DNA of 64,000 nt, from NCBI GenBank assembly GCA_965218095.1, contig OZ244587.1, positions 544,001-608,000 of the forward strand, in the 5' to 3' direction. Below the pieces are notes generated by a model that was not told where the DNA came from, searched no databases, and saw only the letters and a list, made by a program, of their open reading frames with translations. The DNA comes from Candidatus Poribacteria bacterium. GTDB taxonomy: Bacteria; Poribacteria; WGA-4E; PCPOR2b. A program made the position numbers and the translations under genes. How positions within the stretch are numbered: position 1 is the first letter of the stretch; the number at the start of each line of letters is the position of its first letter. This document shows, in pieces, positions 24,252 through 56,671 of the stretch.

Positions 24252-24399
24252 TCCTAACGAAAAAAGTTCAGTTGTCCGCTGTGCGGACGGGCACGGCGGG
24301 GGTTTGCCGAAAACGCTCGACGAACCGAAACCCAGCGCAACCCCAAAAATGTTAATAAAACCACAGCTCCCCGCCGTCAACTGCAACGACTGGTTAGGA
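24252..24399 (-). other. Solo attC site (family B, 148 bp)
   Basis: Minus strand TCCTAAC-CAGTC-GTTGCAGTTG..CAACTGAAC-TTTTTTC-GTTAGGA; homologous to 31719-31864. Confidence 0.8.
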
Positions 24400-24459: not shown

Positions 24460-26127
24460 TCAATCTCTAAACTGGAATGAGTACAGTTTCGCACGACGCA
24501 GGTAGAATTTCAGCTTTATGGTCTTGTCTTCCAAGCTGCCCAGTTCCGAGCCGCTTTTCCAAGCCATCGTATGACGCACGTTGTTACCTTTGAAGGCAAC
24601 ACACTCGGCACGGGTGAAGCCGCCAATGAGCGTAACATCGACTGATCCGTACATATTCTTGTATTCCAGTATTTCGACGGCCAATTCACCATCGTCAGCA
24701 TCGGCGTTGACCACCAGGCTGCCGCCATTAAACTTAAATGGCTTGGTAGTAAGAACGCCTGTCTCGTTGTCGGCCTCGAGGGAAACGAACCCGTCAAGCC
24801 TGAGTTTGCTCAAAGCTACCGCATTGTTAACGGGGTTAGTCCCAGATGGGAGCGGAGGCATTGGATTCGGGGCATGAGCGGTTTCCCGGCCTGCATAGTA
24901 GATCCATATCTCGTCACCCACAATCAAGGGGGGTTGAAACACATGGATCCACTCCCGCCTCTGGTCATATGGCTTCACCAGGGGCATAAAGGGTTTTCTC
25001 TCGCCAATCCTGATCCACCTCACTCCGTCTCGGCTGAAGGTCAATTCAACGTCCTCGGATTCCCCCTCCTCGGCGGTGGTGTGCACCTCCATATGGTTCT
25101 CGGACGAAGCCTGTGGTTTTGATGACCTTATTTTGTATTTGCGGTTGATACCTAGAAATCCGAAATAGACACCTTCGTATTGGAGGACCTCCATGTCATG
25201 GAAGGTGCCGCCGGTCTCACGGTCTTTTGCATCGGGGATCAATACAACCTCCGCCGGGGTCCAGTTCACAAAGTCGCGGCTCTGGCTGCGACCGACTATT
25301 CGAAGGTTCCCCGGCTTGGTGGGGTTAGAGGAGGGGTCAACCTCACCGAATGCAGCGAACATCCTCACTAACACCACGTAACGATCGATTCTGGTATCCC
25401 AGAAGACGTTGTTTTCTGTATCGCTTCGCAAAGGTATTATCGGATTGTCTTCATAGGGCGTCCAATGGATACCGTCGGGTGAATATGCTCCGTTGACCAT
25501 GAAGTAGGCCAAGGCAGGCGAGCCGCGGTAGAGCATCTTGTACTTTTTGGCTGGATCCTTTTCGACCGGGTCCTTCATGACGCAAAGGCCGTCAAGCATT
25601 GATCGTTGAGAATTCTCGTACGCCTTTCTCATCGACGGATCCCGCTCTGCGTCTTCTTTTGTCGGTGGGTCGGACTGAAAAATGACGTTGTTCGACCGCG
25701 AGCCTCGAAATTCCACTAGACCGAGCTGCGGCTTGGTCCAGACGACCCCATCCTCAGAGGTGGCATAGGCTGACGCTGCCGCGTTTTCTATTTCGTCGTA
25801 GCTTCTCACCCCATACCACATTTTGAACAGTCCTTGCTCGGTGTCATAGATGACGCTGCCGTATTGTGAAGTACGCAGGCCTTGCTCCCAAGGCTGATCG
25901 CAGTGCAGGACTGGGTTACCTTCGTACTTGACCGGTTGATTCAGAACACGTCTGAGGCCGTCCATCTCCTCGATGATAAAATCGTCCACGAAGAACTGCT
26001 TCTGGGTGCCAACGTGGCGATAATAACCATGCTTCCAGCCCCACCAGCCTCCGCCAGGGGCTGTTTGAGCTGCAAACAACAATGATGAACCAAGCAACAG
26101 AAAACATATCAATAGTAATAGGTACAT
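24460..26127 (-). CDS. Secreted beta-propeller glycoside hydrolase-like protein (GH32/43-like)
   Basis: Signal peptide; YATSEDGVVW, SPDGIHW, SRDFVNW, SRDGVRW; LRLDGFVSL tail. Confidence 0.75.
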   Translation of the reverse strand: MYLLLLICFLLLGSSLLFAAQTAPGGGWWGWKHGYYRHVGTQKQFFVDDFIIEEMDGLRRVLNQPVKYEGNPVLHCDQPWEQGLRTSQYGSVIYDTEQGLFKMWYGVRSYDEIENAAASAYATSEDGVVWTKPQLGLVEFRGSRSNNVIFQSDPPTKEDAERDPSMRKAYENSQRSMLDGLCVMKDPVEKDPAKKYKMLYRGSPALAYFMVNGAYSPDGIHWTPYEDNPIIPLRSDTENNVFWDTRIDRYVVLVRMFAAFGEVDPSSNPTKPGNLRIVGRSQSRDFVNWTPAEVVLIPDAKDRETGGTFHDMEVLQYEGVYFGFLGINRKYKIRSSKPQASSENHMEVHTTAEEGESEDVELTFSRDGVRWIRIGERKPFMPLVKPYDQRREWIHVFQPPLIVGDEIWIYYAGRETAHAPNPMPPLPSGTNPVNNAVALSKLRLDGFVSLEADNETGVLTTKPFKFNGGSLVVNADADDGELAVEILEYKNMYGSVDVTLIGGFTRAECVAFKGNNVRHTMAWKSGSELGSLEDKTIKLKFYLRRAKLYSFQFRD

Positions 26128-27372: not shown

Positions 27373-27563
27373 AATAAACAGTGTACTATATGAGCGAAAA
27401 GAATTTTGGATACACTATGTTGCTCCTGACATATCCCCGATTTATATGCCAAGTTCTGTGTGAGTCAGACCGGTTTCCTTCCGTGTGTTCCGGTCTTGCC
27501 ATCAAGGACAACTCCGGCAAAAGTGTTTTCTGCCTCTTTGGTGGTCAGGTAGCTGCTCCGTGT

Positions 27564-29429
27564 CTATTGCATGGCAGTTTTGAGGGCCTGGATGTGTCTG
27601 GCTGCCTCCTGGCGGAAATGATCGGCCTGGGGCTCCGTCCATTTGCCTTCGTGTGCCCCTTCCCCCCAGGGGATGTTGTCCATTGTGGCGTTCAGGAAGA
27701 CTTCCGCGTTATCGGCAAGCAGGGCGAGTTGGGTCCGTTTGTCGTTCGAGACGTTCTTTGAGGCGAGAGACTTGTGTGCCTGAGCTATCCAATGTTTTAA
27801 CGTCCGTGCATAGCGGGAGTCGTTGATGCCCTCGCGAATCGCCTCCCAAGGCACGGTAGGTAACAATGTGCCATCACGGGAGATGTAGGAAGGTGCAGCG
27901 TGTGCGTAACTCCTGCCCTCATTTCCGCGTATGAACTCGTCGTATTCATTTGTGTACTCATAGGGTCCGTAGTACGTCCACATCGTCATGCCGGTAGCCC
28001 CACCCTTTTCGGGCAAGAGTCCTGCATTGGTTCGCATACCCTGGTAGCCGTTGCTCGGGCTCAGCGACAATATCGCCCAAACCGCGGCTCCTTTCTTCCC
28101 TGCCGCGGCCAGGATCGCCTCATTGGTTTCCTTGTCAGCTAAGTTATCCAACGTGGTGTTCGCTATGTCCAACCACGGCAAGAGCTTCTGGATGACGTTG
28201 AGTTCGTACGCGGTGCAGAAAATCCGTGCGCTAGGAAGCGCCTGCTTGAGAATCGGCATCTCAAGCAGAGCCCAGTTCATAACCGCGTCGTTGAACCGTG
28301 GTTCATCAACGGGGTAATAGATTAGTGGATAGGGCCAGCCGGCTTGTTTTGCATGGGCGTCAATCTGGCGGAAAAGGTCCGCAAGCACGGGTTTCAGCGA
28401 TTCAGGATACTTGTCTACTTCGTAAAGCACGTTCTTCGTACCGTAATACCTGTGCGGTTTGAATCCCTTCTCCATACCAAACAGGAGTATAAGTTTATTG
28501 GAAAGCAACCGGGGATAGTAAATCACATCCTTAAAGCCCAACTCTTTGATCACGGGCATACACTGATCGGCATTGGGGAAGGTCAACTCCACTTTATCGC
28601 CCACTTTCTTCATTACCGGTTCGACCTTGCCGTCGCAGTACAGAATGCCGGTCATTCCGTGGTCCCGCATGTCCTGAAAAACACGTTTGGTAATAGTTCC
28701 GTTCCAACCGCCATAGTAATACATACCCCACCACATGGACTCGGCGAGCACAAAGTCAGGCACCCGGACGACAAGTTCCAGGTCGGCGGTACCGCCCTTC
28801 TCGGCGCTTATGGTGATCTTTCCTCGATAGCTACTTGCGGTGGCGTTTTTCGGCACGGCGATCGTCAACCAGAATTGCTGACTTTGGTCCTGCTCTACAG
28901 CCGGGGCATCTTTTTGTTGGATCAAGAGATGGGGAACCCGGTGAACTCGGTAGGACCCAAGCCTGCGGTATATTGATTTGACGATTCGAACGTCAATCGC
29001 TTTCTTGTCAACCCGTCCACCGCCTGCCGAGACCAAGTCGGTTACAGTTATTCGCACCATGCCCAGGTCCCTGATCGCGTAAATCGCGAATTGCACGTGC
29101 CGCTTTTCTCCGGCGGTGATCAGTGTTTCCAATGCCGAGGTCAACTCACCTCTCCGCGGCGCCGAGTTTTCAAATACCTCGTCCGAAGCCTTCCGCTGAT
29201 AAACGACATATCCCTGCTTTTTCTGGGCGGGTTTCCGCGCACGGGTCCTGAATACCGTTTGGGGCCTGATTTCGGTGTATTCCTCATCCTCGAAGATGAG
29301 TATCCTCTTGCCGTCCACTATCTTTTCCGTTACGTTTTGTGCCAAGGCGTTTGTCCCGACAAAGAAGGTCACGCAGAGCATACCGCAGATTGCCACAAAT
29401 CTTTCAAGGAAACGTGGGCGGTGCGACAT
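27564..29429 (-). CDS. Secreted glycoside hydrolase-like protein (GH123-like)
   Basis: Signal peptide; FWLTIAVP, YYPVDEP, WEAIREGINDSRY. Confidence 0.6.
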   Translation of the reverse strand: MSHRPRFLERFVAICGMLCVTFFVGTNALAQNVTEKIVDGKRILIFEDEEYTEIRPQTVFRTRARKPAQKKQGYVVYQRKASDEVFENSAPRRGELTSALETLITAGEKRHVQFAIYAIRDLGMVRITVTDLVSAGGGRVDKKAIDVRIVKSIYRRLGSYRVHRVPHLLIQQKDAPAVEQDQSQQFWLTIAVPKNATASSYRGKITISAEKGGTADLELVVRVPDFVLAESMWWGMYYYGGWNGTITKRVFQDMRDHGMTGILYCDGKVEPVMKKVGDKVELTFPNADQCMPVIKELGFKDVIYYPRLLSNKLILLFGMEKGFKPHRYYGTKNVLYEVDKYPESLKPVLADLFRQIDAHAKQAGWPYPLIYYPVDEPRFNDAVMNWALLEMPILKQALPSARIFCTAYELNVIQKLLPWLDIANTTLDNLADKETNEAILAAAGKKGAAVWAILSLSPSNGYQGMRTNAGLLPEKGGATGMTMWTYYGPYEYTNEYDEFIRGNEGRSYAHAAPSYISRDGTLLPTVPWEAIREGINDSRYARTLKHWIAQAHKSLASKNVSNDKRTQLALLADNAEVFLNATMDNIPWGEGAHEGKWTEPQADHFRQEAARHIQALKTAMQ

Positions 29430-29508
29430 TTGTCGGGTCCTTTCGTAATGTATTCTTGTCGGCTCAATTCACAGTGAGTGTTGGTAACGTGTTCACATCC
29501 GGTTAATA

Positions 29509-30027
29509 CTAATTCTTGATCAATATGTTACAAATGTGTATAATGTAATCTAGACCTTTGAACAATCCAAAGGGAATGAATCCCAAAATAAACAGCATCG
29601 GCAAGTCAAGCGCCGCGGCAAGAAAAGCCTTCCAACGCCCGTTATAACTTAGCTTCCAGCTAGAAAATAGTAGACCTCCGAGCAGCCAGAGAGAGTACAG
29701 TTGAAGAGGCAAGAAGATTATGCCGAACAAAGCAGCACGCAATGCGCGATTCACCGCTTCTTCAATTTCCGAGACGTCGGTAAACCCTTCCTCCACGTCA
29801 ATAGGAGCAATATCTGGCTCTTGGAGGAAGGCAATTGCCTGTTCGACATCGGGCTCGGCGACTTGCAATTTGATGCCACCGAGCGCATTGCTCAGATGCC
29901 AAGCCACGCCAACGGTCAATTCGTCAGCGAGAAAAACCGTCAGATCGTTGGCTTCGAGGACACTCTTGGCGAGTGAGGCATCGGTAGGCATTTGAAAGGT
30001 AGCGACTGTCACAAGCTTTTCGGTCAT
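29509..30027 (-). CDS. DUF2007-like membrane protein (cassette)
   Basis: LVTVATF..ASLAKSVLEAN..GGIKLQVAEPD; C-terminal TM helices; follows the attC R' site. Confidence 0.75.
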   Translation of the reverse strand: MTEKLVTVATFQMPTDASLAKSVLEANDLTVFLADELTVGVAWHLSNALGGIKLQVAEPDVEQAIAFLQEPDIAPIDVEEGFTDVSEIEEAVNRALRAALFGIIFLPLQLYSLWLLGGLLFSSWKLSYNGRWKAFLAAALDLPMLFILGFIPFGLFKGLDYIIHICNILIKN

Positions 30028-30043
30028 AGCGGTTTATCCTTCC

Positions 30044-30114
30044 TCCAAACGACCAAGCTCACCGGCGGCAATGGAACGTAGCGGAATTGCCGCCGGTGCA
30101 GCGCTTTGTTAGCC
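30044..30114 (-). other. attC site (family C, 71 bp)
   Basis: GGCTAAC-AAAGC-GCTGCACCGGCGGCAAT..ATTGCCGCCGGTGAGC-TTGGTC-GTTTGGA; R'' ATGGCTAAC is the exact complement of cassette start GTTAGCCAT (31725). Confidence 0.92.
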
Positions 30115-30121
30115 ATTTGTA

Positions 30122-31702
30122 TCACCGTTTTATCGCATCAATCTGAGCGGCACGCTTCTCTAGTTTTTCAGCTTTTTCGCTACGGTTCGTTGCTCTATAG
30201 AGTGCTGCAAGGTTGTTCAGACTTGCCGCCACATTGGGGTGGTCGGAGCCGAGCGCTTTTTCCACTATTGAGAGTGAACGTTTGTAGAGGGGTTCGGCTT
30301 TAGCGTAATTGCCTTGGGTGTCATAGAGTAGTGCAAGATTGTTGAGGCTTGTTGCCACATCGGGGTGGTCGGAGCCGAGTGCTTTTTCCGAGATTGAGAG
30401 TGCACGCTTGTAGAGCGGTTCGGCTTTGGCGTAATTGCCTTGGGTGTCATAGAGTCCTGCCAGATTGTTGAGGCTTATCGCCACATCGGGGTGGTCGTAG
30501 CCGAGTGCTTTTTCCGTTATTGAGAGTGCACGCTTGAGGAGCGGTTCGGCTTTGGCGTAATTGCCTTGGGTGTCATAGAGTAATGCAAGATTGTTGAGGC
30601 TTGTTGCCACATCGGGGTGGTCGGAGCCGAGCGTTTTTTCCTTTATTGAGAGGGAGCGTTTGTAGAGCGGTTCGGCTTTGGCGTAATCGCCTTGGGTGTC
30701 ATAGAGTGCTGCAAGATTGTTCAGGCTTGTTGCCACATCGGGGTGGTCGGAGCCGAGTGCTTTTTCCCTTATTGAGAGGGCACGCTTGAGGAGGGGTTCG
30801 GCTTTGGCGTAATTGCCTTGGGTGTCATAGAGTAGTGCAAGATTGTTGAGGCTTGTCGCCACATCGGGGTGGTCGGAGCCGAGTGCTTTTTCCGAGATTG
30901 AGAGTGCACGCTTGTGGAGGGGTTCGGCTTTTGCGTAATTGCCTTGGGTTCTATAGAGTGCTGCAAGGTTGTTCAGACTTTGAGCCACATCGGGGTGGTC
31001 GGAGCCGAGTGCTTTTTCCGAGATTGAGAGTGCACGCTTGAGGAGCGGTTCGGCTTTGGCGTAATCGCCTTGGGTGTCATAGAGTGCTGCAAGATTGTTG
31101 AGGCTTGTCGCCACATTAGGGTGGTCGGGACCGAGTGCTTTTTCGTGTATTGAGAGCGCACGCTTGTACAACGGTTCGGCTTTGGCGTAATTGCCTTGGG
31201 TGTCATAGAGCAATGCAAGATTGTTGAGGCTTTGAGCCACATTGGGGTGTTCGGGACCGAGTGCTTTTTCCCTTATTGAGAGCGCACGCTTGAGGAGCGG
31301 TTCGGCTTTGGCGTAATTGCCTTGGGTTCTATAAAGTTCTGCAAGATTGTTGAGGCTTGCCGCCACATTGGGGTGGTCGTAGCCGAGCGCTTTTTCGTGT
31401 ATTGAGAGCGCACGCTTGTACAACGGTTCGGCTTTGGCGTAATTGCCTTGGGTGGCATAGAGTGCTGCCAGATTGTTGAGGCTTGTCGCCACAGCGGGGT
31501 GGTCGGGACCGACACTGTTCTCAGCGACTTTGTAAGCTTCTTGAGCAACAATGACAGCACGCTCATATTTGCCTGCACGATAGAGTTTAACAACTTCCTG
31601 ATTCAGAATATCCCATTCTATGCCAGCTCCCTGTGCAAAGACATTTAATGCTCCGAGTTGTAAGAGCGAAAAAATCACTGTAACTAATTTTACAATTTTC
31701 AT
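30122..31702 (-). CDS. Secreted tetratricopeptide-repeat protein (kinesin-light-chain-type 42-aa repeats)
   Basis: Signal peptide; 10 full near-identical HPDVATSLNNLA..EKALG repeats plus degenerate flanking ones. Confidence 0.93.
   Translation of the reverse strand: MKIVKLVTVIFSLLQLGALNVFAQGAGIEWDILNQEVVKLYRAGKYERAVIVAQEAYKVAENSVGPDHPAVATSLNNLAALYATQGNYAKAEPLYKRALSIHEKALGYDHPNVAASLNNLAELYRTQGNYAKAEPLLKRALSIREKALGPEHPNVAQSLNNLALLYDTQGNYAKAEPLYKRALSIHEKALGPDHPNVATSLNNLAALYDTQGDYAKAEPLLKRALSISEKALGSDHPDVAQSLNNLAALYRTQGNYAKAEPLHKRALSISEKALGSDHPDVATSLNNLALLYDTQGNYAKAEPLLKRALSIREKALGSDHPDVATSLNNLAALYDTQGDYAKAEPLYKRSLSIKEKTLGSDHPDVATSLNNLALLYDTQGNYAKAEPLLKRALSITEKALGYDHPDVAISLNNLAGLYDTQGNYAKAEPLYKRALSISEKALGSDHPDVATSLNNLALLYDTQGNYAKAEPLYKRSLSIVEKALGSDHPNVAASLNNLAALYRATNRSEKAEKLEKRAAQIDAIKR
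30240..31500 (-). repeat. 126-bp coding tandem repeat, about 10 units
   Basis: Recurring CGGTTCGGCTTTGGCGTAATTGCCTTGGG at 126-bp period. Confidence 0.92.
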
Positions 31703-31718
31703 ATTTATATCCTTGTAT

Positions 31719-31864
31719 GGCTAACGAAAAAGTTCAGTTGTCCGATGAATCGGACGAGCACGGTGCCGGTTTGCCGAAAACTGTTCGGCAAACCAAAAAC
31801 CGCCACATACCAGAACCTAATAAAAACCGCATTTCACGCCATCGCCTGCAACGGCTGGTTCGGT
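31719..31864 (-). other. attC site (family B, 146 bp)
   Basis: ACCGAAC-CAGCC-GTTGCAG..CTGAAC-TTTTTC-GTTAGCC; the upstream gene's stop lies inside the site. Confidence 0.85.
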
Positions 31865-32064
31865 GCTTGGTTTTCTATCTGCTCATAGGATAAATCGGGA
31901 AGACTAGCTTGTTGACGAGCGTGTTCAACGGTCATTGCTACCAGATTTCCTGAAACATCCAAATCGATGTAAATATTTTCGTTAATCTCTTTCGTTTCAG
32001 CCACTTCGAGATCCGAAAATTCGACTAATGCCGTATCTGTCTCTGGAAAATACTTCACTTTCAT
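31834..32064 (-). CDS. DUF2283-family putative antitoxin
   Basis: MKVKYFPETDTALVEF..IYIDLDVSGNLVAMTVEHA. Confidence 0.82.
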   Translation of the reverse strand: MKVKYFPETDTALVEFSDLEVAETKEINENIYIDLDVSGNLVAMTVEHARQQASLPDLSYEQIENQAPNQPLQAMA

Positions 32065-32303
32065 CGATTTCCTCCCTTAAAACTCCTATCGAAAAAGGCA
32101 TTATGAACCGTTTCCCCATCTGCGAGTAAAATGACTCTGAGGAACTTATTTTCTTCTTTGATCTTTTTCCACTTTCTTATTCTGCCATCAGACTGAACTT
32201 CTGTATGGATGGGATTCTTGATAGTTTCTTCAATCCATTCCATCTTAATTTTGGCACGGTCAGGTCTTTGGCGCATGTGGAGAAAGTATTGGGTCAATTT
32301 CAA
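32061..32303 (-). CDS. DUF4258/RelE-like putative toxin
   Basis: 80 aa, basic; WIEETIKNP..LRVILLADGETVHNAFFDR; ATGA overlap with the DUF2283 gene. Confidence 0.7.
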   Translation of the reverse strand: MKLTQYFLHMRQRPDRAKIKMEWIEETIKNPIHTEVQSDGRIRKWKKIKEENKFLRVILLADGETVHNAFFDRSFKGGNR

Positions 32304-32331
32304 TTCTTTGCAATAGCCTCCGTCAAATCTC

Positions 32332-32429
32332 TCCTAACGCCAGAGGTGAGCGGCGAGTGACAGGTGTGAGACGCTCGAATTGGAGAAAAAACTGCGCTGT
32401 CACCTGCCAGCTTCAGCTCTTTGTTATGT
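32332..32429 (-). other. attC site (98 bp)
   Basis: ACATAAC-AAAGA-GCTGAAGC..GTGACAG..CTGTCAC..GCTCACC-TCTGGC-GTTAGGA, 1 bp after the GIY-YIG stop. Confidence 0.8.
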
Positions 32430-32430
32430 G

Positions 32431-32925
32431 TTAGTTTGAGTTTAGCCCAAAGGACCGGGTCCCAAGCTTTTTCTTGTACATCTGCTCGTATTTGATCGCT
32501 TTCAATTGCGTCAAGTCCTTCGGCAACGTTTGCAAGACCGTGAAGTTGAAATTACGCCCATATTGCGGATCACTTTCGACGAGAACACGAAGCTCTTTAT
32601 TGTCACCGTGAACGGTCTTGACGTAACGTCTCCATCTCCCCAACAAGCCGTGCTTCCCACTGGCGGAACCAACATACTGCATTCCCGTCTGGGTATCCAC
32701 AATCAAGTACACTGCTGCGACCGCAGACAACATAGTGTGCCATTCCTGATTTGCGACTGGGTTCTCTATAATCTCAACCAACTCATCGAAGGTGAGAACG
32801 AAGTCGAGATAACCCGGAAAGGGCTGTACACATCCTGGGGGCAGTACTTGAACAACAGTTTTGTCCGTCAGCCATTGATCCCATCGACGTGACTTGCCCC
32901 AAGCAATGACCACGCGGCGTTTCAA
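32431..32925 (-). pseudogene. GIY-YIG nuclease-family protein, 5' truncated
   Basis: AVYLIVD..QYVGSASG..GRW; no RBS/ATG, fused directly to a half attC. Confidence 0.8.
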
Positions 32926-32934
32926 ATCCTCAAA

Positions 32935-32968
32935 ATTTCACGCCATCGCCTGCAACGGCTGGTTCGGT
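32935..32968 (-). other. Half attC (R''/L'' side), identical to part of 31719-31864
   Basis: ATTTCACGCCATCGCCTGCAACGGCTGGTTCGGT matches 31831-31864 exactly. Confidence 0.8.
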
Positions 32969-33092
32969 GCGTTCACTAGATACTTTGATCAATTGCATGT
33001 TGCCAGCCACTCATTGACCCGTTTTTCGACGTTTAGAATAGCAGGGGCTTTGATTAAGCATGTGTGCCTTCATCGGTGTTTGTTCTATTAAA

Positions 33093-33163
33093 GCATAACG
33101 ATAAAGTTCAGTGGCGGCAATGGAGCGTAGCGGGATTGCCGCCGCTGCAGCGCCTTGTTAGGG
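33093..33163 (-). other. attC site (family C, 71 bp)
   Basis: CCCTAAC-AAGGC-GCTGCAGCGGCGGCAAT..ATTGCCGCCACTGAAC-TTTATC-GTTATGC; REase stop TAA lies in R''; GCGCCCTAAC complements cassette start GTTAGGGCGC. Confidence 0.92.
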
Positions 33164-34111
33164 CGCATTGTATGGCCCAAGGAAACGCGCACCGTTAAAA
33201 TGGATTAGGTGCGATGGGGCATCGGCTACCCACACTTCCGTTTCCCACGCGATTTCGCCGAGATACTGTCCCATGATGACGCGGTTTGGGAAGGCGCTCA
33301 CATAGACCAGCCCAGGTTTTGACCTAGCAAAGAGATTGGTGAGTTCGTCATGCCGCTTGCCATTGACGGGGCCATGACTGGTAACCGACTCAACCAAGAG
33401 CAGCCAATTCTTCTCGGTATAGTGCAGCACCACATCAGGCATCTTGCCGTGTGAATCCACACCGATACCCAGTTCGGCCAGCAGGTCCGCGTCGAAGTAA
33501 CCCCACTTGTCTCCAGTGTCGCCAACATAGACCAGCACGCCACCCGGTGCGAAGCGTGGAGCGAAGTTCTCAATGATGGCTCGAATCAGTTCGCTGTGCT
33601 CGCCGGGGCTAAGAGTGATTCCCTTCCCCGGTGAAATCTCAACCGGAATACGATTCTGCTCCCGCTCCTTGGCATAGCGGGCTACCAGAGTTTCGCGCTC
33701 GGCCAGATAAGCCGTCAGCGCGTCATGCCATGCAGAGGTGTTGAAAGTATGCAGCAGAGCCAGCGCGGCGGGTTCGATTTGATAGACGGCCTTCGGGCTG
33801 TTTACCGGACGGTCCGGCCTGTCCGGGTTGTAAAGTGCGATACCGGCATCGCAGAACTGGTGCATCGTTTGGCGACGAACTGTCTCGCGGGTGTTCGGTG
33901 CATATTCCTTGTCGTAGTGCTCTCGCGCCCAATCTATGATGGGCGTGATGCCTACAAGCGGGTTTTCGGCATCAGCCCAGGCTTTGCCTGGCGTGAGGTT
34001 CAGTAATGCCAGCAAACAGAGAGCGGAGCGCTCGTTCTGTTGCGCCCGTGGCAAACCCAGCGAAATGATGATCTGGTGAGCGGCTTCAATATAATCGTTC
34101 TTGTTGTTCAT
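33158..34111 (-). CDS. Type II restriction endonuclease, BsuBI/PstI family
   Basis: YAPNTRETVRRQTMHQF, LSPGEHS, HGKMPDVV..LVESVTSHGP, IAWETEVW. Confidence 0.9.
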   Translation of the reverse strand: MNNKNDYIEAAHQIIISLGLPRAQQNERSALCLLALLNLTPGKAWADAENPLVGITPIIDWAREHYDKEYAPNTRETVRRQTMHQFCDAGIALYNPDRPDRPVNSPKAVYQIEPAALALLHTFNTSAWHDALTAYLAERETLVARYAKEREQNRIPVEISPGKGITLSPGEHSELIRAIIENFAPRFAPGGVLVYVGDTGDKWGYFDADLLAELGIGVDSHGKMPDVVLHYTEKNWLLLVESVTSHGPVNGKRHDELTNLFARSKPGLVYVSAFPNRVIMGQYLGEIAWETEVWVADAPSHLIHFNGARFLGPYNAP

Positions 34112-35589
34112 TCGGCTAAAGTCCCTAGCTTGGCGTCAATCATGGTCTGCGTGAGTTCTCCTTGTTGCACGGCCCATTTGCCAATTTCAATGAGAGCGTC
34201 ACGGCTCGGGTACTTCATAAGTTTGAGGTCGGTAGCATTGACTTGCGTGTGACCGCTGAAGCATCGGTAATATTCATCAACGGCAGTTGAATTGAGGAAC
34301 ACGGCCAGCCCACGCGCCAACGCCTGTGGCAAGCCGCGCTTGTTCTCGTGGAAAAAATTTAAGTGGTTCTCAAAGCCCAGCATGGGTGCGTTATCGAGTG
34401 CGCTAGGGTCAACCACGCTCGCCACGATTCGGCGTCTCTCCTCCTTGGACGTGAAGCGCCGCACCACGCAATAAAAGCCGCTCGGATATAGCCATTTTTC
34501 GGTATCACCGTTGCGCAGGATAGCGTTTGGCTTCTTCCTACCGGCAACCGGCCATTTGGCGCCAATGCCGCTGAAATGGCACGGATAGAGCAAAGGCACG
34601 GAACCCGCCTCCGGCATGTCGCGCAAGTGCTCTTTCAGCCGGAAATCGATTACTGGGCCAGTCGAAACATTGATGCCAAGATCGGCCAGCGCGTAGCGGA
34701 TGATCGGAGCTAGTTCGATGGTGCTTTCGGGCGATAATGGCACACGGATAAATTGCTCCGAGTCATCCGGGAAAACGATCTGATCGAACGAGTATTTGTG
34801 GGTGGTAAGGTTGGTGAAGGTGTCATCGGCCGAAGTGGAAACTGTTACCGGGCCTTGTTGTCCACTACGCTCAAGTCGGATAATAATGTTCTCTTGCAAC
34901 ACTTTATCATCCTTGAATGTTTTGTTACGAGACTCGAAAAGATGCACGTGCCGGATGGCTGCACGCTCAAGGATGAAGTCACGAAACGGGCGGTAATACG
35001 GTCCATTACAGAAACTGCGCGGAATGATTGCCACGATTTGCCCGCCCGGCGCGGCTAGCGCGACAGCTAGCGCCACAAAAGCCGAATACAGATTCACCGT
35101 CTCGACGCCAACACGGCGTAAGGCTAAACGGTGCGATGAATTACTATTGATCTTTTTGTAAGGTGGGTTAAGGATGGCGTGAGTATATTTTTGGAGTTCT
35201 TCGGCGAAAAGGCTTCCAGAAAGCCAATCTACGGCGGCGTGTATAAAATCGACCTTTCGGATTGTCGGAATAAACTCTGGATTATTTCTGTATTTTTCCA
35301 ATGTTTGATTCAAATAGGAATGCAGAGAATCGTCAATCTCGAAAGCATCTAGCTCTACACGCTGAAAGTTAAAACCAGCGGCATCCCACCTTTCCAAGAA
35401 AGCGGCAGAAAGCGAGCCAATTCCGGCTCCCGCATCAAGCAAGCGACAACTGCCTTTGCCGTCGGGGAAAAGACTGGCCATGAAAGCCGCAGTTCTTGCT
35501 GATGTAAGAAACTGGCCGAACTGCGATTTTTTCTTCGCTTCGGTGTTCTTTGATAACCGCAATCTGGTTTGTTCAACCGTTGACAACAT
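34108..35589 (-). CDS. N6-adenine DNA methyltransferase, BsuBI/PstI (gamma) type
   Basis: GQFLT, LLDAGAGIG, ILNPPY, FSGHTQVNATDL; ATGA overlap with the REase. Confidence 0.92.
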   Translation of the reverse strand: MLSTVEQTRLRLSKNTEAKKKSQFGQFLTSARTAAFMASLFPDGKGSCRLLDAGAGIGSLSAAFLERWDAAGFNFQRVELDAFEIDDSLHSYLNQTLEKYRNNPEFIPTIRKVDFIHAAVDWLSGSLFAEELQKYTHAILNPPYKKINSNSSHRLALRRVGVETVNLYSAFVALAVALAAPGGQIVAIIPRSFCNGPYYRPFRDFILERAAIRHVHLFESRNKTFKDDKVLQENIIIRLERSGQQGPVTVSTSADDTFTNLTTHKYSFDQIVFPDDSEQFIRVPLSPESTIELAPIIRYALADLGINVSTGPVIDFRLKEHLRDMPEAGSVPLLYPCHFSGIGAKWPVAGRKKPNAILRNGDTEKWLYPSGFYCVVRRFTSKEERRRIVASVVDPSALDNAPMLGFENHLNFFHENKRGLPQALARGLAVFLNSTAVDEYYRCFSGHTQVNATDLKLMKYPSRDALIEIGKWAVQQGELTQTMIDAKLGTLAE

Positions 35590-35608
35590 GATGCACCTCC
35601 TTTTTGCG

Positions 35609-35627
35609 CCCTAACATAATATTAGCC
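35609..35627 (-). other. attI-like simple site heading the cassette array
   Basis: Minus strand GGCTAAT-ATTAT-GTTAGGG (L box, 5-nt spacer, R box GTTRRR) with no attC hairpin upstream. Confidence 0.65.
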
Positions 35628-35642
35628 AATACTTCTGTGCTT

Positions 35643-35671
35643 AATATATACTATCGTCAGGAAAAAGGCAA
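35643..35671 (-). promoter_or_regulatory. Pc-like sigma70 promoter
   Basis: Minus strand TTGCCT-17 nt-TATATT directly upstream of the attI-like site. Confidence 0.55.
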
Positions 35672-35782
35672 CAGAAAAAAGCGTGAGAAAACACTTGTCC
35701 AGTGTTGATGTCACTCTTAATGATGGAACCGATTTGGTTTCTGATGAAACGTGGCAGGTGGATGCTGGCGCCCCGATTGCAG

Positions 35783-35839
35783 GTGGGAGGGTAAGGCTCC
35801 CGCCAAACCTTTAGCTCCGCGGGAGCGTCGCCCTCCCAC
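35783..35839. repeat. REP-like palindrome
   Basis: GTGGGAGGG..GCTCCCGC..GCGGGAGC..CCCTCCCAC. Confidence 0.6.
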
Positions 35840-35911
35840 GGCGCGGCGAGGAATCAATTGTCGTACATTTTCTCCATAGACCCCCTGAACAGTTACGTTT
35901 CGGGATTGTCC

Positions 35912-37039
35912 TTACGTCGTCAGCAATTCCCGCAACCGATTGGAGACAACCTGCATATCATTGTCAATCAGGTTCGACACAGCGATGTGCAGGGAACCAT
36001 TACCGCCGTGCAAGCAGATACTTGGATCGCCGTCGAGTAATGTCTCTGAAATTTGTTCAGCGGTCTTGCCCAACCCACCTTCATCCAGTGTAATCTGCAG
36101 CCCATTTCCGAGTGTGTGTTCATCTAAGACCGTCGAGCAGGTGATATGGGGAACACCGTCCAGAGCATCCTGAATGGCTTGCGCTTTCTGCTGATGTTCC
36201 GCGATCCGCGCCTCGTGATCCATGCCAAACCACTCGCGCAAAGCCGCGACAACAGCAATAATCTCCTGACGGTCCAGTTTCAGTGGCCTGCCGACACAGC
36301 GCGACTCCTGGGTTTCATAGCCGATGAAGCTGTGCAGAAAGGCAGAATCCACCAAATCCTTGCGCCCGCACAGTACCCCCGTCGAATTGCACGCGCCGAA
36401 GTATTTCGCGCCGTAGCCGATAAGATCAGCGCCCGCCTCTGGATAGCGGCGCATCTGCTCCAAGGGATAGACCTGACTTGCCGCATCAACGATCACAGGA
36501 ATATCATGCGCTTTGCCGATGGTCAAAACCTCATCCAGCGGCACAACGCCCGCGTCGTTTCCGGGCGCAACGTAGTGGATGGCGGCAGTTTTGTCCGTGA
36601 TGGCGGCCTCTACTTGATCGGCGGTGGTATACTCATCGCCTGCCTCGATTATTTTTGCCCCGAAGATGGTCAGACACCGGTCGTAGTGGTATCGCTGGGA
36701 TTTTTGAATGACGATTTCATCTTTCATCCCTGTCGTATCCGGCAGTTGCTGAATTTTCTCCGGATCGCTTCCGGTCATACACGCCGCTGAACTCAGCGCA
36801 AGGGCTGCGGCACAGCCGGGTGTCACCAGAGCTCCCTCGGCGCCCAGAATCCCGGCGATAACATCACCCGATTTCTTCAGCAGTTCTTCCATGTCCGCGA
36901 AGTATCGGCTCGCGTGATTCATTGCTGCCTGAACCCCTGGTGAAGGTCTTGAGCCGCCGAGCACTGTCTTAAACCCTATAGCGTTGATGACAGGCTTCAC
37001 GCCTAACTCCTGGTAAACTCTAAGTCCATCTTGATTCAT
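35912..37039 (-). CDS. SelA-like PLP-dependent enzyme
   Basis: LGVKPVINA.G..TVLGGS, VIVDAAS, YGAKY, GRPLKL. Confidence 0.85.
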   Translation of the reverse strand: MNQDGLRVYQELGVKPVINAIGFKTVLGGSRPSPGVQAAMNHASRYFADMEELLKKSGDVIAGILGAEGALVTPGCAAALALSSAACMTGSDPEKIQQLPDTTGMKDEIVIQKSQRYHYDRCLTIFGAKIIEAGDEYTTADQVEAAITDKTAAIHYVAPGNDAGVVPLDEVLTIGKAHDIPVIVDAASQVYPLEQMRRYPEAGADLIGYGAKYFGACNSTGVLCGRKDLVDSAFLHSFIGYETQESRCVGRPLKLDRQEIIAVVAALREWFGMDHEARIAEHQQKAQAIQDALDGVPHITCSTVLDEHTLGNGLQITLDEGGLGKTAEQISETLLDGDPSICLHGGNGSLHIAVSNLIDNDMQVVSNRLRELLTT

Positions 37040-38123
37040 TGTTATCTTCCTTGCCCTGTATTAACAGGGGAATAAATTTATGGTTGGAACGTGGAAAAGG
37101 AAATTGATCAATCTGATCAACCGTAATCCAGCGATAATCTACCGGATCGTTCAAAGCCACTTCACCAGACTGATAACGACAACAAAAAACATCCATCACA
37201 ATCTTAAAGTGTGTGTAGGCATGCTTGACGCGGGTGAGGTATTCGGTGGGTTCAACCAAAAGGTTCACTTCTTCTCGAATTATTCGGCAACAAGCCTGTT
37301 CAGCGGTTTCGTCCGCCTTAATTTCGCCGCTAGGGAATTCCCATAACCCTCCGAGTAAGCCATCAGGTTTGCGTTGGGTGATTAAAATCTGGTCGTCTTT
37401 GTAGGCGATCCCCGCGACGATATGATACTCTGGAATCGGTTTGGATTTCCGATGGGTCGGAAATTCATCCTGTCGGGCAGTCTGAGAGGCGCGACAGAGT
37501 GTGTTCACCGGACAGACGATACAGGTCGGAGAATTCGGGCGGCAGACGGTCGCCCCCAACTCCATCATCGCCTGATTAAAAATTCCCGGCGCGTTGTGGT
37601 CTAATAGCAAATCCGCCTTTTCTCGAAAAATCGTCCTAGACGCCGATTGATTGACCGGTGAATGGATGAGAAATAGCCGTGCCAGCACACGTTTGACATT
37701 TCCATCTACGACGGCGTAAGGAAGATTAAGCACGATGCTCTGTACCGCCGCGGCGATGTACTCCCCCACGCCAGGCAACTTTCGGAACGTGGCATAATCC
37801 GCCGGTATCTCTCCCCCAAACTCCTGCGCGACAACTTTGGTGGCTTTGTGTAGATTCCGCGCTCTGGCATAGTATCCTAATCCTTCCCAAGTTTTCAGCA
37901 CGTCCTGCAAATCCGCCTCTGCCAAACTTTGAGCATCGGGGAACTTGTCCACAAATTTCTGGTAATATTCCAGCACTTTTTTGACCTGCGTCTGCTGAAG
38001 CATCACCTCGGAGACCCAGATGCAGTAAAGATCTTTGGTTTCGCGCCAGGGGAGTTTTCGATGATGGATCTCGAACCATTGCAGCAGATTTTTGCGAAAT
38101 TGTGCAATGTTTTTTGAAGTCAT
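37020..38123 (-). CDS. mutY: A/G-specific adenine glycosylase
   Basis: WVSEVMLQQTQV, WEGLGYYARARNL, VDGNVKRV, 4Fe-4S Cys cluster, LGGLWEFP. Confidence 0.96.
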   Translation of the reverse strand: MTSKNIAQFRKNLLQWFEIHHRKLPWRETKDLYCIWVSEVMLQQTQVKKVLEYYQKFVDKFPDAQSLAEADLQDVLKTWEGLGYYARARNLHKATKVVAQEFGGEIPADYATFRKLPGVGEYIAAAVQSIVLNLPYAVVDGNVKRVLARLFLIHSPVNQSASRTIFREKADLLLDHNAPGIFNQAMMELGATVCRPNSPTCIVCPVNTLCRASQTARQDEFPTHRKSKPIPEYHIVAGIAYKDDQILITQRKPDGLLGGLWEFPSGEIKADETAEQACCRIIREEVNLLVEPTEYLTRVKHAYTHFKIVMDVFCCRYQSGEVALNDPVDYRWITVDQIDQFPFPRSNHKFIPLLIQGKEDNNESRWT

Positions 38124-50532: not shown

Positions 50533-50698
50533 TCCTAACTCTATGCAGTTGACAGCGGAGGCTGTGCTTTTATGGATGCTTTTGAGGTTGTGGTGGGTTT
50601 CGGTTTGTCGAACAGTTTTCGGCGAATCCCCGCCCCCGATAGATCGAGGGTAGGCTGTGCTCGTCCGAGAATCGGACAACTGAACTTGAGGCTTCGAC
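50533..50698 (+). other. Solo, decayed attC (family B) on the opposite strand
   Basis: TCCTAAC..TGCAGTTGAC..GGGTTTCGGTTTGTCGAACAGTTTTCGGC..GGACAACTGAACTT aligns with the reverse complements of 24252-24399 and 31719-31864. Confidence 0.75.
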
Positions 50699-54077: not shown

Positions 54078-54173
54078 TTAGAACGGTCTGGCTGAACCGC
54101 GTCCGCCCATGATATCGCTAAGAATTTCCGAAATGCAAACAGGGCAGACGTCGGCTCCATCCTGTTGTTAGGT
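54078..54173 (-). other. Isolated attC site
   Basis: ACCTAAC-AACAG-GATGGAGCCGACGTCTGCCC..GGGCGGACGCGGTTCAGC-CAGACC-GTTCTAA. Confidence 0.72.
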
Positions 54174-54219: not shown

Positions 54220-56671
54220 GTGCGCCTCTGAGTAACTAAATGCAATGATGGTATGATTCCATCAATGGTAGCTTACAACCATAAGCCTCACCTTAACTGC
54301 GTTGCCAGAAATAGCAGGGTGGGAAGCAAAGGGACATGGCACATTCCTGTGAGGGAAGGTAGACCCTTGAAATCGGAACGTCAGGCTGAAGATGATAAGG
54401 TTAAAACGAAAGTTGAACTGATGCTTGAAGCCTCGTTACCTTAAAACAGGTTAATCTACAAGTAGGAGCCTATAACTAATAAAGTACAAGCATAGGATAG
54501 GTGCTTATAGTTCACATAACAAAAGGGGATATGTTGAAACTTCATATTCCTAGTAAGCCAACGCTTCGGGGTAGAATCAGAACCTAAGTCATCTACAAAC
54601 TTGCATTCAGTGAGATTAGAGGAATCCCTAAGTCAGCTCAATAGAGAAGATATGGGAGAGGAGATTGGATAGGATATTATGGTTGACCAACACGTTATAA
54701 CCATGAAATATCCAAGTACAATCAGAGTCAGCACTTTGAAAAGGATAACAATGGATTTCACCACAACCGATGAAAATCAAGTAAATACTTGTCAAACGAG
54801 TGGCTTTGGCATATTCTCACCTGAGAATATACGCTCATGTCAGAAATATGTCCAAACTATCCAATGTCGTCTGGACAAAGCGGTTGCAAATGATGATAAG
54901 TCCAAAATTCGATGGTACACGCATCTACTGAGTATGAAGTCAAGAGCAGTGAAAATCATTGCCATATACAATATATGCCAAGTTAATAAAGGCAAATATA
55001 CAACAGGCACTGATGGTATCTCAATGCCCAAAGATAGGGACAATAGGATTCAAGTGATGGAAAACCTCTTAAAGGATATAGACATTACTAAGAAGCCACA
55101 ACCTATCAGAAGGGTATATATTCCAAAGCCTAATGGCAAATTAAGACCACTAGGCATACCCACCATCTCTGACAGAATTACTCAGGAAATCATCAGACAG
55201 ACAATAGAACCTATCTGTGAATACCACTTCCTTCCATGCAGTTATGGATTCAGACCAAAACGAAGCTGTCATGATGCAATAGAAGGCTTACATAAGAAGT
55301 TAGCCAAAAGGCAGGCTTCAAGATGGGTCATAGAAGGGGATATTGAAGGGTACTTTGACAACATTAGCCACAACCACATCTTAGTAACCCTAGAGAAATG
55401 GCACACTCCATGATCTCTGACGAAAATCATCAAGGAAATGTTGAAGGCAAACATCATGAAAGACATGGAGCTAACTCCAACATCTGCAGGAACACCACAC
55501 AGGGAGGAGTCATTAGTCCCATGCTCGCCAATGTTGCACTCACATGCCTTGATGAATTGACATTAGAATATGCGATTGGTAAAGGGTCTAACCCTATTGT
55601 CAGATATGCTGATGATTTTATAATCACCGTCAAAAGTGAAGAAAAAGCATTAGCAATCAAGTCTCATATCAAGGAGTACCTAAAAGATGCCACAAATCTA
55701 ACACTATCAGATGATAAAACTCGAATCACTGAAATCAGTGAAGGTTTTGACTTCTTAGGATTCAACACTAGGAAATACAAAGATAAACTGCTGATTAAAC
55801 CATCTAAAGCAAATGTGGAAAAGTTCAAGTTAAATGTTAAAAAGGTTATCAAAATAACGGATGACCCTATAGAACTAATCCACAAACTTAATCCAATAAT
55901 CAGAGGGTGGGGAAACTACTATCGCCATGTAGTGTCTAAAGATACTTTTGATTATCTTGGAAAAATACTCTGGCAGAACACCAGTAAATGGTGTAGGAAA
56001 CGACACCCAAGAGGCAATGGACATTGGATTAAACAATACTACAAGATGGATAGAGGAAACAGATGGAGATTCAGTTATGAAGGTGCTATAATGGATAATA
56101 TCTATAGCATACCAATAAGGAGATTCATCAAAGTCCGCAGTGATAAAAGAGTTTATGATGCAAGTGACAAAGAGTACTGGGATACCCGTGAGTACGTTAA
56201 TGCTAAGAATAGCATCTATGGCTCAATAGAAACAAAGACGCTGTTCTACAAACAACGTGGTAAATGTGGGTATTGTGTACACCCAATCACAGACACTCAG
56301 GTGAGAGATAACACAATATATAAACATCACATGAAGCCAAGAAGTGAGAACGGGGACTGGAAGTTAGGCAACCTAAGACTCCTCCACGCAGATTGCCATA
56401 CCTCGCTTCATAGTATGTACTCACGCAAAGAAATGGCTGACCTCATGGACAAAGGTATAGATTACCTTCGCCTCATGAAGCCAGCCAAGTAGTAGCAGGG
56501 AGTTAATTACCACTATGCCTATTAGCAACTTTAAGGAGAACCTCAAAGAAAGGGGTAATTACCAATAAAAAGTCATATCATCATTTTTGACTGGGCAAGC
56601 CGTATGCGGTGAAAGTCGCACGTACGGTTTAGATGGGGGGAAAATTCCGCAAGGAATCTACCTATCCATAC
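54220..56671 (+). mobile_element. Group II intron (IIB type)
   Basis: 5' GTGCG; 34-nt domain V AAGCCGTATGCGGTGAAAGTCGCACGTACGGTTT with AGC triad; 3' AC; EBS1 TATAGT (54506) pairs with IBS1 ACTATA (54214); EBS2 CCTTA (54439) pairs with TAAGG (54207). Confidence 0.93.
54679..56492 (+). pseudogene. ltrA: Group II intron RT/maturase with HNH endonuclease, frameshifted
   Basis: RPLGIPTISDR, SYGFRPKRSCHDA, QGGVISPML, RYADDF, GFDFLGF, IRGWGNYY, C-terminal CGYC..HH..NLRLLHADCH; split near 55490. Confidence 0.9.

Follow-up and report, generated by a model that had tools for sequence, protein, structure and literature searches.

How does a row of integron cassettes come to stand behind an attI-type site in a chromosome that holds no intact integron integrase gene (intI)? 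The question is raised by a sponge-associated Candidatus Poribacteria genome, a single closed contig of 6,350,489 bp with a completeness of 93.87%, whose bases 544001-608000 were analysed here as one stretch of 64,000 nucleotides (nt), the window. The array in question occupies 29.5-35.7 kb of the window (573.5-579.7 kb of the chromosome). An earlier note, made from the letters alone, had described it as an integrase-less integron array which keeps attI and the cassette promoter (Pc). According to our analysis, the region is probably a decayed cassette array of the type known as CALIN (a cluster of attC sites without an integron integrase), headed by an attI-type site that lies within a conserved module. 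In the following, positions preceded by C1 refer to the chromosome, and loci named 1562k or similar are given in thousands of its bases; G and L numbers are handles for other genomes and loci.

Cassettes and attC sites

The features of the array are listed below. Bits and E-values of the attC sites refer to the covariance model R1, and seed sites are those that entered it.

29509-35671, minus: the array, cassettes and attC sites with an attI-type site at the head
35609-35627, minus: attI-type simple site GGCTAAT-ATTAT-G/TTAGGG, crossover between G35615 and T35614
33099-35614, minus: cassette 1, type II restriction-modification (RM), assigned by Pfam, PADLOC and its attC
34108-35589, minus: methyltransferase (MTase) coding sequence (Pfam Eco57I, 42.6 bits; PADLOC MTase_II, 685.6 bits)
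33158-34111, minus: PstI/BsuBI-family restriction endonuclease (REase) coding sequence (Pfam BsuBI_PstI_RE and BsuBI_PstI_RE_N, 207.6 and 189 bits; PADLOC REase_II, 523.1 bits)
33093-33163, minus: attC of the RM cassette (42.0 bits, seed)
32941-33098, minus: remnant, the 3' end of another cassette with the R''-L'' half of its attC (about 32943-32968), assigned by identity to C1:5567157-5567317
32898-32968, minus: half attC site (15.0 bits, E 0.024, non-seed)
32332-32925, minus: 5'-truncated Uzume UzuA gene with attC (open reading frame 32431-32925; PADLOC UzuA, E 9.9e-64)
32332-32429, minus: attC of the UzuA gene (20.0 bits, E 4e-4, non-seed)
31719-32337, minus: toxin-antitoxin cassette
32061-32303, minus: DUF4258-like gene (Pfam 19.9 bits, below the cut-off of 25)
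31834-32064, minus: DUF2283 gene (Pfam 53.7 bits, cut-off 23)
31719-31864, minus: attC of the toxin-antitoxin cassette, long type, 146 nt (102.2 bits, seed)
30044-31724, minus: TPR cassette, coding sequence 30122-31702, 526 amino acids (Pfam TPR_12, 681 bits)
30044-30114, minus: attC of the TPR cassette (44.3 bits, seed)
29509-30027, minus: DUF2007-like membrane protein gene beyond the last attC (Pfam DUF2007 22.8 bits, below cut-off)

The attC sites were recognised with R1, which we built from 14 attC-like repeats of the same genome, and not with the attC model of IntegronFinder (attc_4). The repeats had been gathered genome-wide by BLAST of four intergenic hairpins, which have relatives at many places; the window was scanned with filters off. 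R1 matched five sites in the array, four full and one half, between co-oriented minus-strand reading frames. An integrase-less array of genes separated by attC hairpins, as claimed in the earlier note together with the proposal of a covariance-model search, is therefore real, except that the DUF2007-like gene has no attC after it in the R1 scan of the window. The gaps between the four full sites, as placed by the home-built model, are about 0.5-1.6 kb; at least two sites are thus less than 4 kb apart, no integrase lies within the cluster distance, and the adjacent intI of a complete integron is missing.

All 14 aligned sites have R'' and R' boxes of the form RYYYAAC...GTTRRRY with invariant AAC/GTT, L boxes that pair except for one extrahelical base, and spacers of 5-7 nt that stay unpaired. 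Each site consists of the R'' box, a 5-nt spacer, L'' with one bulged base, a variable centre, L', a 6-7-nt spacer and R'; depending on the centre, the length is 71 nt (short type) or about 146 nt (long type). The L-box helix is 91.1% paired, with four pairs changed on both sides. Altogether 89.4% of the cells pair, versus 27.6-49.2% if the partners are slid by 1-3 columns, and none of 500 shuffles attained as high a pairing or covariation score. With a strict pair of motifs (RYYYAAC-N5-GYTGYA ... TGARC-N5-7-GTT), 15 paired sites were obtained from the genome and one from its reversed sequence; a looser pattern (AAC...9-bp stem with bulge...GTT) was dropped, its 870 matches being mostly due to chance. 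Direct reading of all attC sites of the alignment (A1) showed that the extrahelical L-box base is a G on the coding strand of the cassette. In class 1 and Vibrio attC sites, the bulged base is a C on this strand and a G on the recombined bottom strand.

Over the entire genome, R1 returned at least 34 matches at E<=1, with scores computed for only 150 of 1826 candidates; most of them are scattered singles or groups of two to four. This count is an underestimate, because the attC beside the intI relic at 1537k is of a different type which R1 does not detect. At the array head, no R1 match was found up to E=10. Three further matches lie in the window outside the array. The one at 24252-24399 (minus) is the best-scoring attC of the window (125 bits, long type); it is solitary, without integrase, 5 kb from the array and directly after a 555-amino-acid gene (24460-26127) without Pfam match. 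An attC-like site at 50533-50697 (plus, 62 bits), which has lost its GTT, is located between a methyltransferase gene and an enolase-superfamily gene, and a weak one at 54078-54173 (minus, 18.8 bits) is located upstream of a TIM-barrel/UxuA-like gene. An Rfam scan of the window, in which attc_4 had no part as it does not belong to Rfam, returned a group II intron only (54679-56671, plus; domain V/VI at 56595-56671, 63.6 bits; HNH domain). Its reverse transcriptase/maturase/HNH gene is probably frameshifted, since it is split into two overlapping reading frames (54679-55413 and 55398-56492).

The boundaries of two cassettes can be read from the cassettes themselves. The first bases of the RM cassette, GTTAGGGCGC (35615-35606), are complementary over 10 bases to GCGCCCTAAC (33166-33157) at its own R'', and those of the TPR cassette, GTTAGCCAT (31725-31717), over 9 bases to ATGGCTAAC (30116-30108), exactly as the earlier note had observed. 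For the RM cassette, other genomes provide independent proof at the sequence level. Elsewhere it starts with GTTAG(G/A)GCGCAAAGAAG, i.e. G/TTAG(G/A)GCGCAAAGAAGGAG, and ends with GCGCCCTAAC plus attC. The same boundaries were found in an Anaerolineae metagenome-assembled genome (MAG; L058) and in a Thiohalocapsa genome (L060, behind another attC); boundary-conserved variants occur in a Caldilineaceae MAG, in a 4.7-Mb Poribacteria MAG and in a Spirochaetaceae array with four attC matches (L080). The boundaries lie behind or before attC sites in L058, L060, L080, L057 and L056. One PstI-type RM cassette with identical boundaries is thus shown to move among Chloroflexota, Gammaproteobacteria, Spirochaetota and Poribacteria. 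The closest relatives of the RM genes of the window belong to closed 'Candidatus Poribacteria' MAGs, and R1 detected attC sites in 3 of the 80 loci that encode the closest REase relatives (57-89% identity). The reading frames of MTase and REase overlap by 4 nt, and the pair is, judged from its families, a complete PstI/BsuBI-family type II RM system; we take the MTases of this family to be of the gamma-type N6-adenine class.

The next segment is a composite. The remnant is 90.7% identical over 161 nt to C1:5567157-5567317, where a complete attC exists, and the UzuA reading frame matches only profile positions 114-278 of 278, so that it does not code for a full-length UzuA; its Pfam match to GIY-YIG is below cut-off. 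As the 158 nt upstream (33098-32941) are the end of a 5567k-type cassette including the first attC half, a deletion must have joined this half site to the interior of uzuA. The remnant and the GIY-YIG gene reported previously were thus seen at the right places and have to be renamed: they are the 3' end of another cassette with half an attC, and the C-terminal part of UzuA. The toxin-antitoxin pair is a putative one; its DUF2283 gene scores above the cut-off and overlaps the sub-threshold DUF4258-like gene by 4 nt.

The TPR protein contains 11-12 TPR_12/TPR_10 units, and a role in host interaction is conceivable. A paralogous cassette of about 89.5% identity (C1:1562539-1561488) is found directly behind a second copy of the attI core, and the cassette start GTTAGCCATACAAGG (GTTAGCCATACAAGGATATAAATATG), which follows the attI core there, is also found behind long attC sites at 2412k and 2754k (partial copies). 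The DUF2007-like gene has only distant relatives in genus g4 (34-44% over the N-terminal 66-97 residues); it may be a cassette or the original flank, and searches with DUF2007 and GH123 did not locate the array end. With respect to defence genes, PADLOC confirmed the RM system as complete and the Uzume gene as present in a broken form; the array is a modest source of such genes, with no unknown cassettes to mine except the DUF2007-like gene.

The attI-type site and the upstream module

The attI-like site GGCTAAT-ATTAT-GTTAGGG (35627-35609), which had been recognised before, behaves as an attI on the evidence of sequence comparison: different cassettes occur elsewhere at the same crossover. An exact copy of the 19-mer TTGGCTAATATTATGTTAG leads into other downstream sequence at C1:1562535-1562553 (the TPR paralog) and in the metagenome contig L152; copies with one mismatch exist in G006:C234 and G027:C169. 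In all five copies, which come from three genomes and one metagenome contig, identity ends right after G/TTAG, as expected after different integration events, and the site is therefore read as attI. The five downstream sequences all differ, and two of them are cassettes with independently known left ends. At 1562k, the identical core comprises 30 nt (C1:1562537-1562566) and leads, at the same G/TT, into the TPR paralog with its attC, behind which come what remains of another cassette (104 nt) and then a host gene; the neighbourhood contains no intI. In L152, a different gene (453 amino acids) follows, and an attC of 36 bits lies on the same strand 1.5 kb downstream. The copies in G006:C234 and G027:C169 precede NUDIX-like and glyoxalase-like genes, which were named by reading translations and not by a family scan.

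The attI sites beside intI genes or relics (own relics, G001 and G050; n=5) have the form (C/A)TAAT-N4-5-G/TTAG and are preceded by an inverted repeat such as TTAGAC-N11-GTCTAA. The equivalent in the window, TTAAGC-N11-GGCTAAT-ATTAT-G/TTAGGG, has the same spacing. As a filter for attI-like sites, the inverted repeat gave 14 matches versus 13 and 20 in reversed controls; because it was not enriched, only individual sites were used. Discarded were the match in L150 (one of three 19-mer matches), which lies inside a coding frame and encodes LANIMLG, that in L151, where the contig ends 21 nt later and thus offers no downstream context, and the coding match in G069:C36. A scan of metagenomes with a 23-nt pattern found nothing.

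Two observations concern other attI sites of the chromosome. An integrase-less attI-like site, CCGTCTAAT-TAGTG-GTTAGGC, of the type of the 1055k intI relic, lies at C1:529797, 14 kb before the window; small reading frames follow, one of which reads like a HicB-type antitoxin, and R1 finds no attC nearby. The intI relics at C1:1538030 and C1:1225268 have the near-identical attI TTATACGGAATTTTTTCCG(T/C)ATAAT-CAAGA-G/TTAG with different sequence after it, and are a duplicated platform with different first cassettes.

In the window, a module of about 110 nt ends with the 19 nt of the attI-type site; its parts and its neighbour are as follows:

35912-37039: SelA-like gene, aminotransferase fold, next to the spacer upstream of the array
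35616-35720, minus: conserved non-coding module (about 110 nt including the attI site), defined by homology to L152 and to Poribacteria copies
about 35697-35681, minus: conserved box ACAAGTGTTTTCTCACGC of the module
35671-35666, minus: -35-like TTGCCT of the module
35648-35643, minus: -10-like TATATT of the module, 17 nt after the -35-like box
35644-35622, minus: imperfect inverted repeat TTAAGC-N11-GGCTAA of the module

Homology between the window and L152 extends over about 105 nt upstream of the crossover (z=5.0; none of 500 shuffles reached the score). A BLAST search of the phylum with 115 nt gave further copies in G006:C511 (87% over 93 nt), G069:C189 (85% over 88 nt), G006:C705 (84%) and G069:C163 (79%), and an alignment added G006:C302. 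Matches were accepted only below E 1e-5, as at E<=1 noise makes 101 of 176 genomes 'match'. Conserved are ACAAGYGTTTTCTCACGC, the -35-like GTTGCC/TT box, followed after 17 nt by a TATAYW box, and AAGCACAGAAGTGTTGGCTAATA; the -35 box and the spacing are kept in four to five copies. An attC on the same strand follows within about 2 kb in the window, at 1562k, in L152, in G006:C302 (20.2 bits) and, weakly, in G069:C163 (15.2 bits).

No intI was found beside any module copy with a readable upstream side (window, 1562k, G006:C511, C705 and C234, G027:C169, and L152 over 576 nt); in true platforms, intI is 150-300 nt away. The upstream neighbours are the SelA-like gene (window), a dioxygenase-like gene (1562k), a divergent MutS2 gene (C511), a divergent gene for a large outer-membrane-like protein (C705) and a co-oriented hydrolase-like gene (G027), all but the SelA-like one named by reading translations and not by family scans. 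The upstream flanks of the two core copies of the own genome have only a 15-nt stretch in common, with a score equal to that of the best shuffle. Between the SelA-like gene and the module of the window, a GC-rich palindromic element, GTGGGAGGGCGACGCTCCCGCGG...GGCGGGAGCCTTACCCTCCCAC (35770-35850, minus), was noticed, which has one weak relative at C1:1847776.

These data suggest, tentatively and with more doubt than confidence, that the module is a stand-alone docking platform in multiple copies. In such a 'distributed integron', one integrase or an incoming one would serve scattered integrase-less attI modules, each of which seeds a small array; the integrase itself may spread the module.

Integrase relics, decay and rival explanations

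A search of the whole genome with TIGR02249 gave 12 matches at E<=10, none over the 265-bit cut-off and none inside the window. The best one (1536854-1537808) contains 7 stop codons over three frames. Together with the fragments at 1055k, 1226k and 2745k, there are four broken intI relics; those at 1055k and 1537k still have attI and cassettes beside them. The IntI-like matches nearest to the array are a weak one at C1:860703-861539, possibly a Xer-type recombinase, and the relic 1055430-1055824. The search for an IntI elsewhere in the genome, which the earlier note had recommended, thus yielded broken relics only. Its statement that no intI lies between the array and the SelA-like gene was correct: the spacer measures about 295 nt to the crossover, and 269 nt (35643-35911) are unique and non-coding. 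This absence is no assembly artefact, since a metagenome contig (X1, record 5) covers 35476-37092 without a single difference.

Intact IntI is also rare among relatives; it was found in one of 41 related genomes (G006), and two of 176 genomes of the phylum exceed the family cut-off. G006, which belongs to the same family, has at least four module copies, one intact IntI on another contig (C646, 505.8 bits) and several fragments; G069 and G027 have module copies and no IntI match at E<=1e-8. C646 (L039/L158, 14.9 kb) carries the only intact IntI of the family. R1 finds no attC on this contig, and the 400 nt next to IntI contain no TAAT-N5-GTTAG site; it may represent an integrase without an array.

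The truncated UzuA, the halved attC and the missing terminal attC are signs of decay, and with about 89% identity the paralogous cassettes are old. As all intI genes of the genome are broken, the array is considered frozen, and the evidence points to its ongoing erosion in this genome. The strain comparison that had been proposed could be made in part: a strain of about 98% identity from another study (run X3) keeps the attI-RM junction (contig covering 35350-35707, 7 differences; record 21), and the array was otherwise seen at its far end (27517-30094). Three joints in aligned contigs were rejected as traces of cassette movement. The joint 31720>35611, considered as an excision product, has a short side of 25-30 letters and equals the form of the 1562k paralog; the joint 35605>31721 (long attC, then RM cassette) has a depth of 45.8 in X1 versus 3.6-4.9 for the strain flanks and belongs to other genomes; the joint 30092>33142 (X3, single contig, depth 3.7, side 21) connects two attC sites that resemble each other, and could be a chimera of the assembly. 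The joints are explained by the 1562k paralog and by more abundant genomes with RM behind a long attC. Among relatives, the order DRG-MutY-SelA-like is kept at 4 of 10 loci and the MutY-SelA-like adjacency at 8 of 10. In genus g4 this adjacency is kept, but nothing of the array or of GH123/BNR follows downstream; therefore these relatives offer no empty site for comparison.

The locus would best be explained as follows. An integron integrase would have inserted circular cassettes at G/TT of the attI-type site, the newest first, resulting in the order PstI-family RM, composite of remnant and 5'-truncated Uzume gene, DUF4258/DUF2283 toxin-antitoxin pair, and TPR, with the DUF2007 gene after the last attC. 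Other module copies, in the own genome, in other Poribacteria and in the metagenome contig, carry other cassettes at the same crossover. With all intI genes of this genome broken, the array is now frozen and eroding. Cassettes would be expressed from the module promoter or by read-through from the upstream operon.

The earlier note had proposed instead an active satellite platform, which still captures and expresses cassettes by means of an integrase supplied in trans. The attI-type site and the promoter-like module are indeed intact and conserved, cassettes with 90-95% identical relatives circulate in the same metagenomes, and G006 combines its module copies with an intact IntI on another contig, on which R1 finds no attC. 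We nevertheless regard ongoing capture as improbable in view of a closed chromosome with four relics and no IntI over the cut-off, of G069 and G027, which have the module without an IntI match, of the losses in UzuA and the attC sites, of the junction preserved in the 98% identical strain, and of the age of the paralogous cassettes. Even less probable is a once-complete integron which was cut from its intI by deletion or rearrangement, so that the module would be the leftover of an ordinary platform. Integrase loss and rearrangement are among the origins proposed for CALINs in PMC4889954, the genome holds four intI relics, two of them (1055k and 1537k) with attI and cassettes, and the box ACAA-GTGTTTTCT resembles AACAATGTGTTTTCT in the platforms of G006:C646 and of the own 1055k locus. 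However, each readable module copy lacks an intI at the distance of true platforms, the 269-nt spacer contains no IntI-coding remnant, and no significant similarity links the module to the regions of true platforms.

The least probable of these alternatives is insertion at a secondary site (attG), i.e. at an arbitrary GWT with an accidental likeness to attI. Small CALINs and single attC sites can arise in this way according to Loot et al. (bioRxiv 10.1101/2022.09.11.507474); many single attC sites are scattered over this genome, as judged from the R1 matches, and the array abuts the conserved host genes DRG, MutY and SelA-like. An arbitrary left arm, however, is contradicted by its 19-30 nt, which recur in front of different cassettes at five places, and by the about 105 nt upstream that are homologous between the window and L152; secondary sites have only GWT in common.

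Several findings weigh against our own reading of a CALIN with an attI-type head in a conserved module. Both-side changes affect only 8 of the 34 modelled attC pairs, a number which 48 of 500 shuffles also reach; the attC sites form one sequence family and not a widely diverged set. Moreover, the attC structure model was derived from the same sequences on which pairing was scored. The attI role is deduced from sequence comparison, and around the copies in G006:C234 and G027:C169 no attC was detected by R1. In G006:C511 and C705, the module copies cease to match 5 nt ahead of the crossover, with no cassette behind them, and that in G069:C163 precedes a large, ordinary-looking gene; the module could therefore be a general promoter-bearing repeat that is only sometimes a docking site. 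Of the postulated promoter TTGCCT-17-TATATT (35671-35643), the hexamers are present and lie in the conserved module; they match at 9 of 12 positions, and such matches occur at chance frequency in the region (5 found, 5.2 expected in shuffles). When compared with the intI-attI regions next to intI genes and relics, the module did not reach significance (z at most 2.3); the 'kept Pc' is therefore better taken as a promoter-like element of the module itself than as the canonical Pc. The public runs with pieces of the region include sponge metatranscriptomes, but their RNA contigs mostly represent relatives at 90-95% identity and give no sign that the locus is transcribed. Finally, a plasmid- or phage-borne IntI may exist outside the single-contig assembly, given its completeness.

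Comparison with known integrons

The simple site of the class 1 integron, attI1, consists of two inverted integrase-binding arms, a 7-nt spacer ending with G, and the crossover G/TT. The layout of the 1562k copy, GGCTAA-TATTATG-TTAGCC, is comparable to that of attI1; the sequence differs, and the site in the window has neither recognisable DR1/DR2 repeats nor an adjacent intI.

A literature search found no paper with Poribacteria and integrons together in title or abstract, and no description of a multi-copy integrase-less attI/promoter module. The present data document integron cassettes, attC families and attI sites in Candidatus Poribacteria, where intact integrases are rare (2 of 176 genomes). 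They also provide a testable case for the origin of a CALIN from a conserved integrase-less attI/promoter module rather than by random secondary-site insertion or simple loss of intI.

Cury et al. 2016 (PMC4889954) define CALINs and describe them as common, with 95% of them away from any intI pseudogene; the origins proposed are rearrangement, loss of the integrase and insertion at secondary sites, and IntegronFinder annotates attI for classes 1-3 only, by exact match. By this description, the array of the window resembles a CALIN: it is small, has at least two attC sites less than 4 kb apart, carries accessory or unknown cassettes, and has neither intI nor an intI pseudogene beside it. It differs in having a recognisable attI-type site and a conserved upstream module. 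Chromosomal integrons have been described as stores of anti-phage defence cassettes (bioRxiv 10.1101/2024.07.02.601686). The window array likewise carries a type II RM system, Uzume and a toxin-antitoxin pair as cassettes, but its Uzume gene is truncated, it has 4-5 cassettes and not hundreds, and its host is a member of the Poribacteria.

Experimental insertion into attG sites, which share only GWT and are unlike att sites (Loot et al., bioRxiv 10.1101/2022.09.11.507474), leads to cassettes outside complete integrons, including single attC sites lacking integron integrases (SALINs). The window is similar in that its cassettes stand at G/TT beside host genes in a genome with many single attC sites; its left arm is different, comprising 19-30 conserved nt and about 100 nt of conserved DNA upstream. 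The closest parallel is a CALIN with its own attI in the Shewanella prophage M16-3 (Qi et al. 2023, PMC9892861). This attI ends with ...CACTAATAAAATGTT and has the same CTAAT-N5-G/TT layout as GGCTAATATTATGTT of the window. The same prophage, however, also harbours a complete integron, which has the same attI, and an intact IntI, whereas the chromosome of the window is without intact IntI, and the attI-type site of the window belongs to a module which is present in multiple copies in several genomes. A CALIN with its own attI has thus been published before; of most interest in this case is the multi-copy, integrase-less attI/promoter module.

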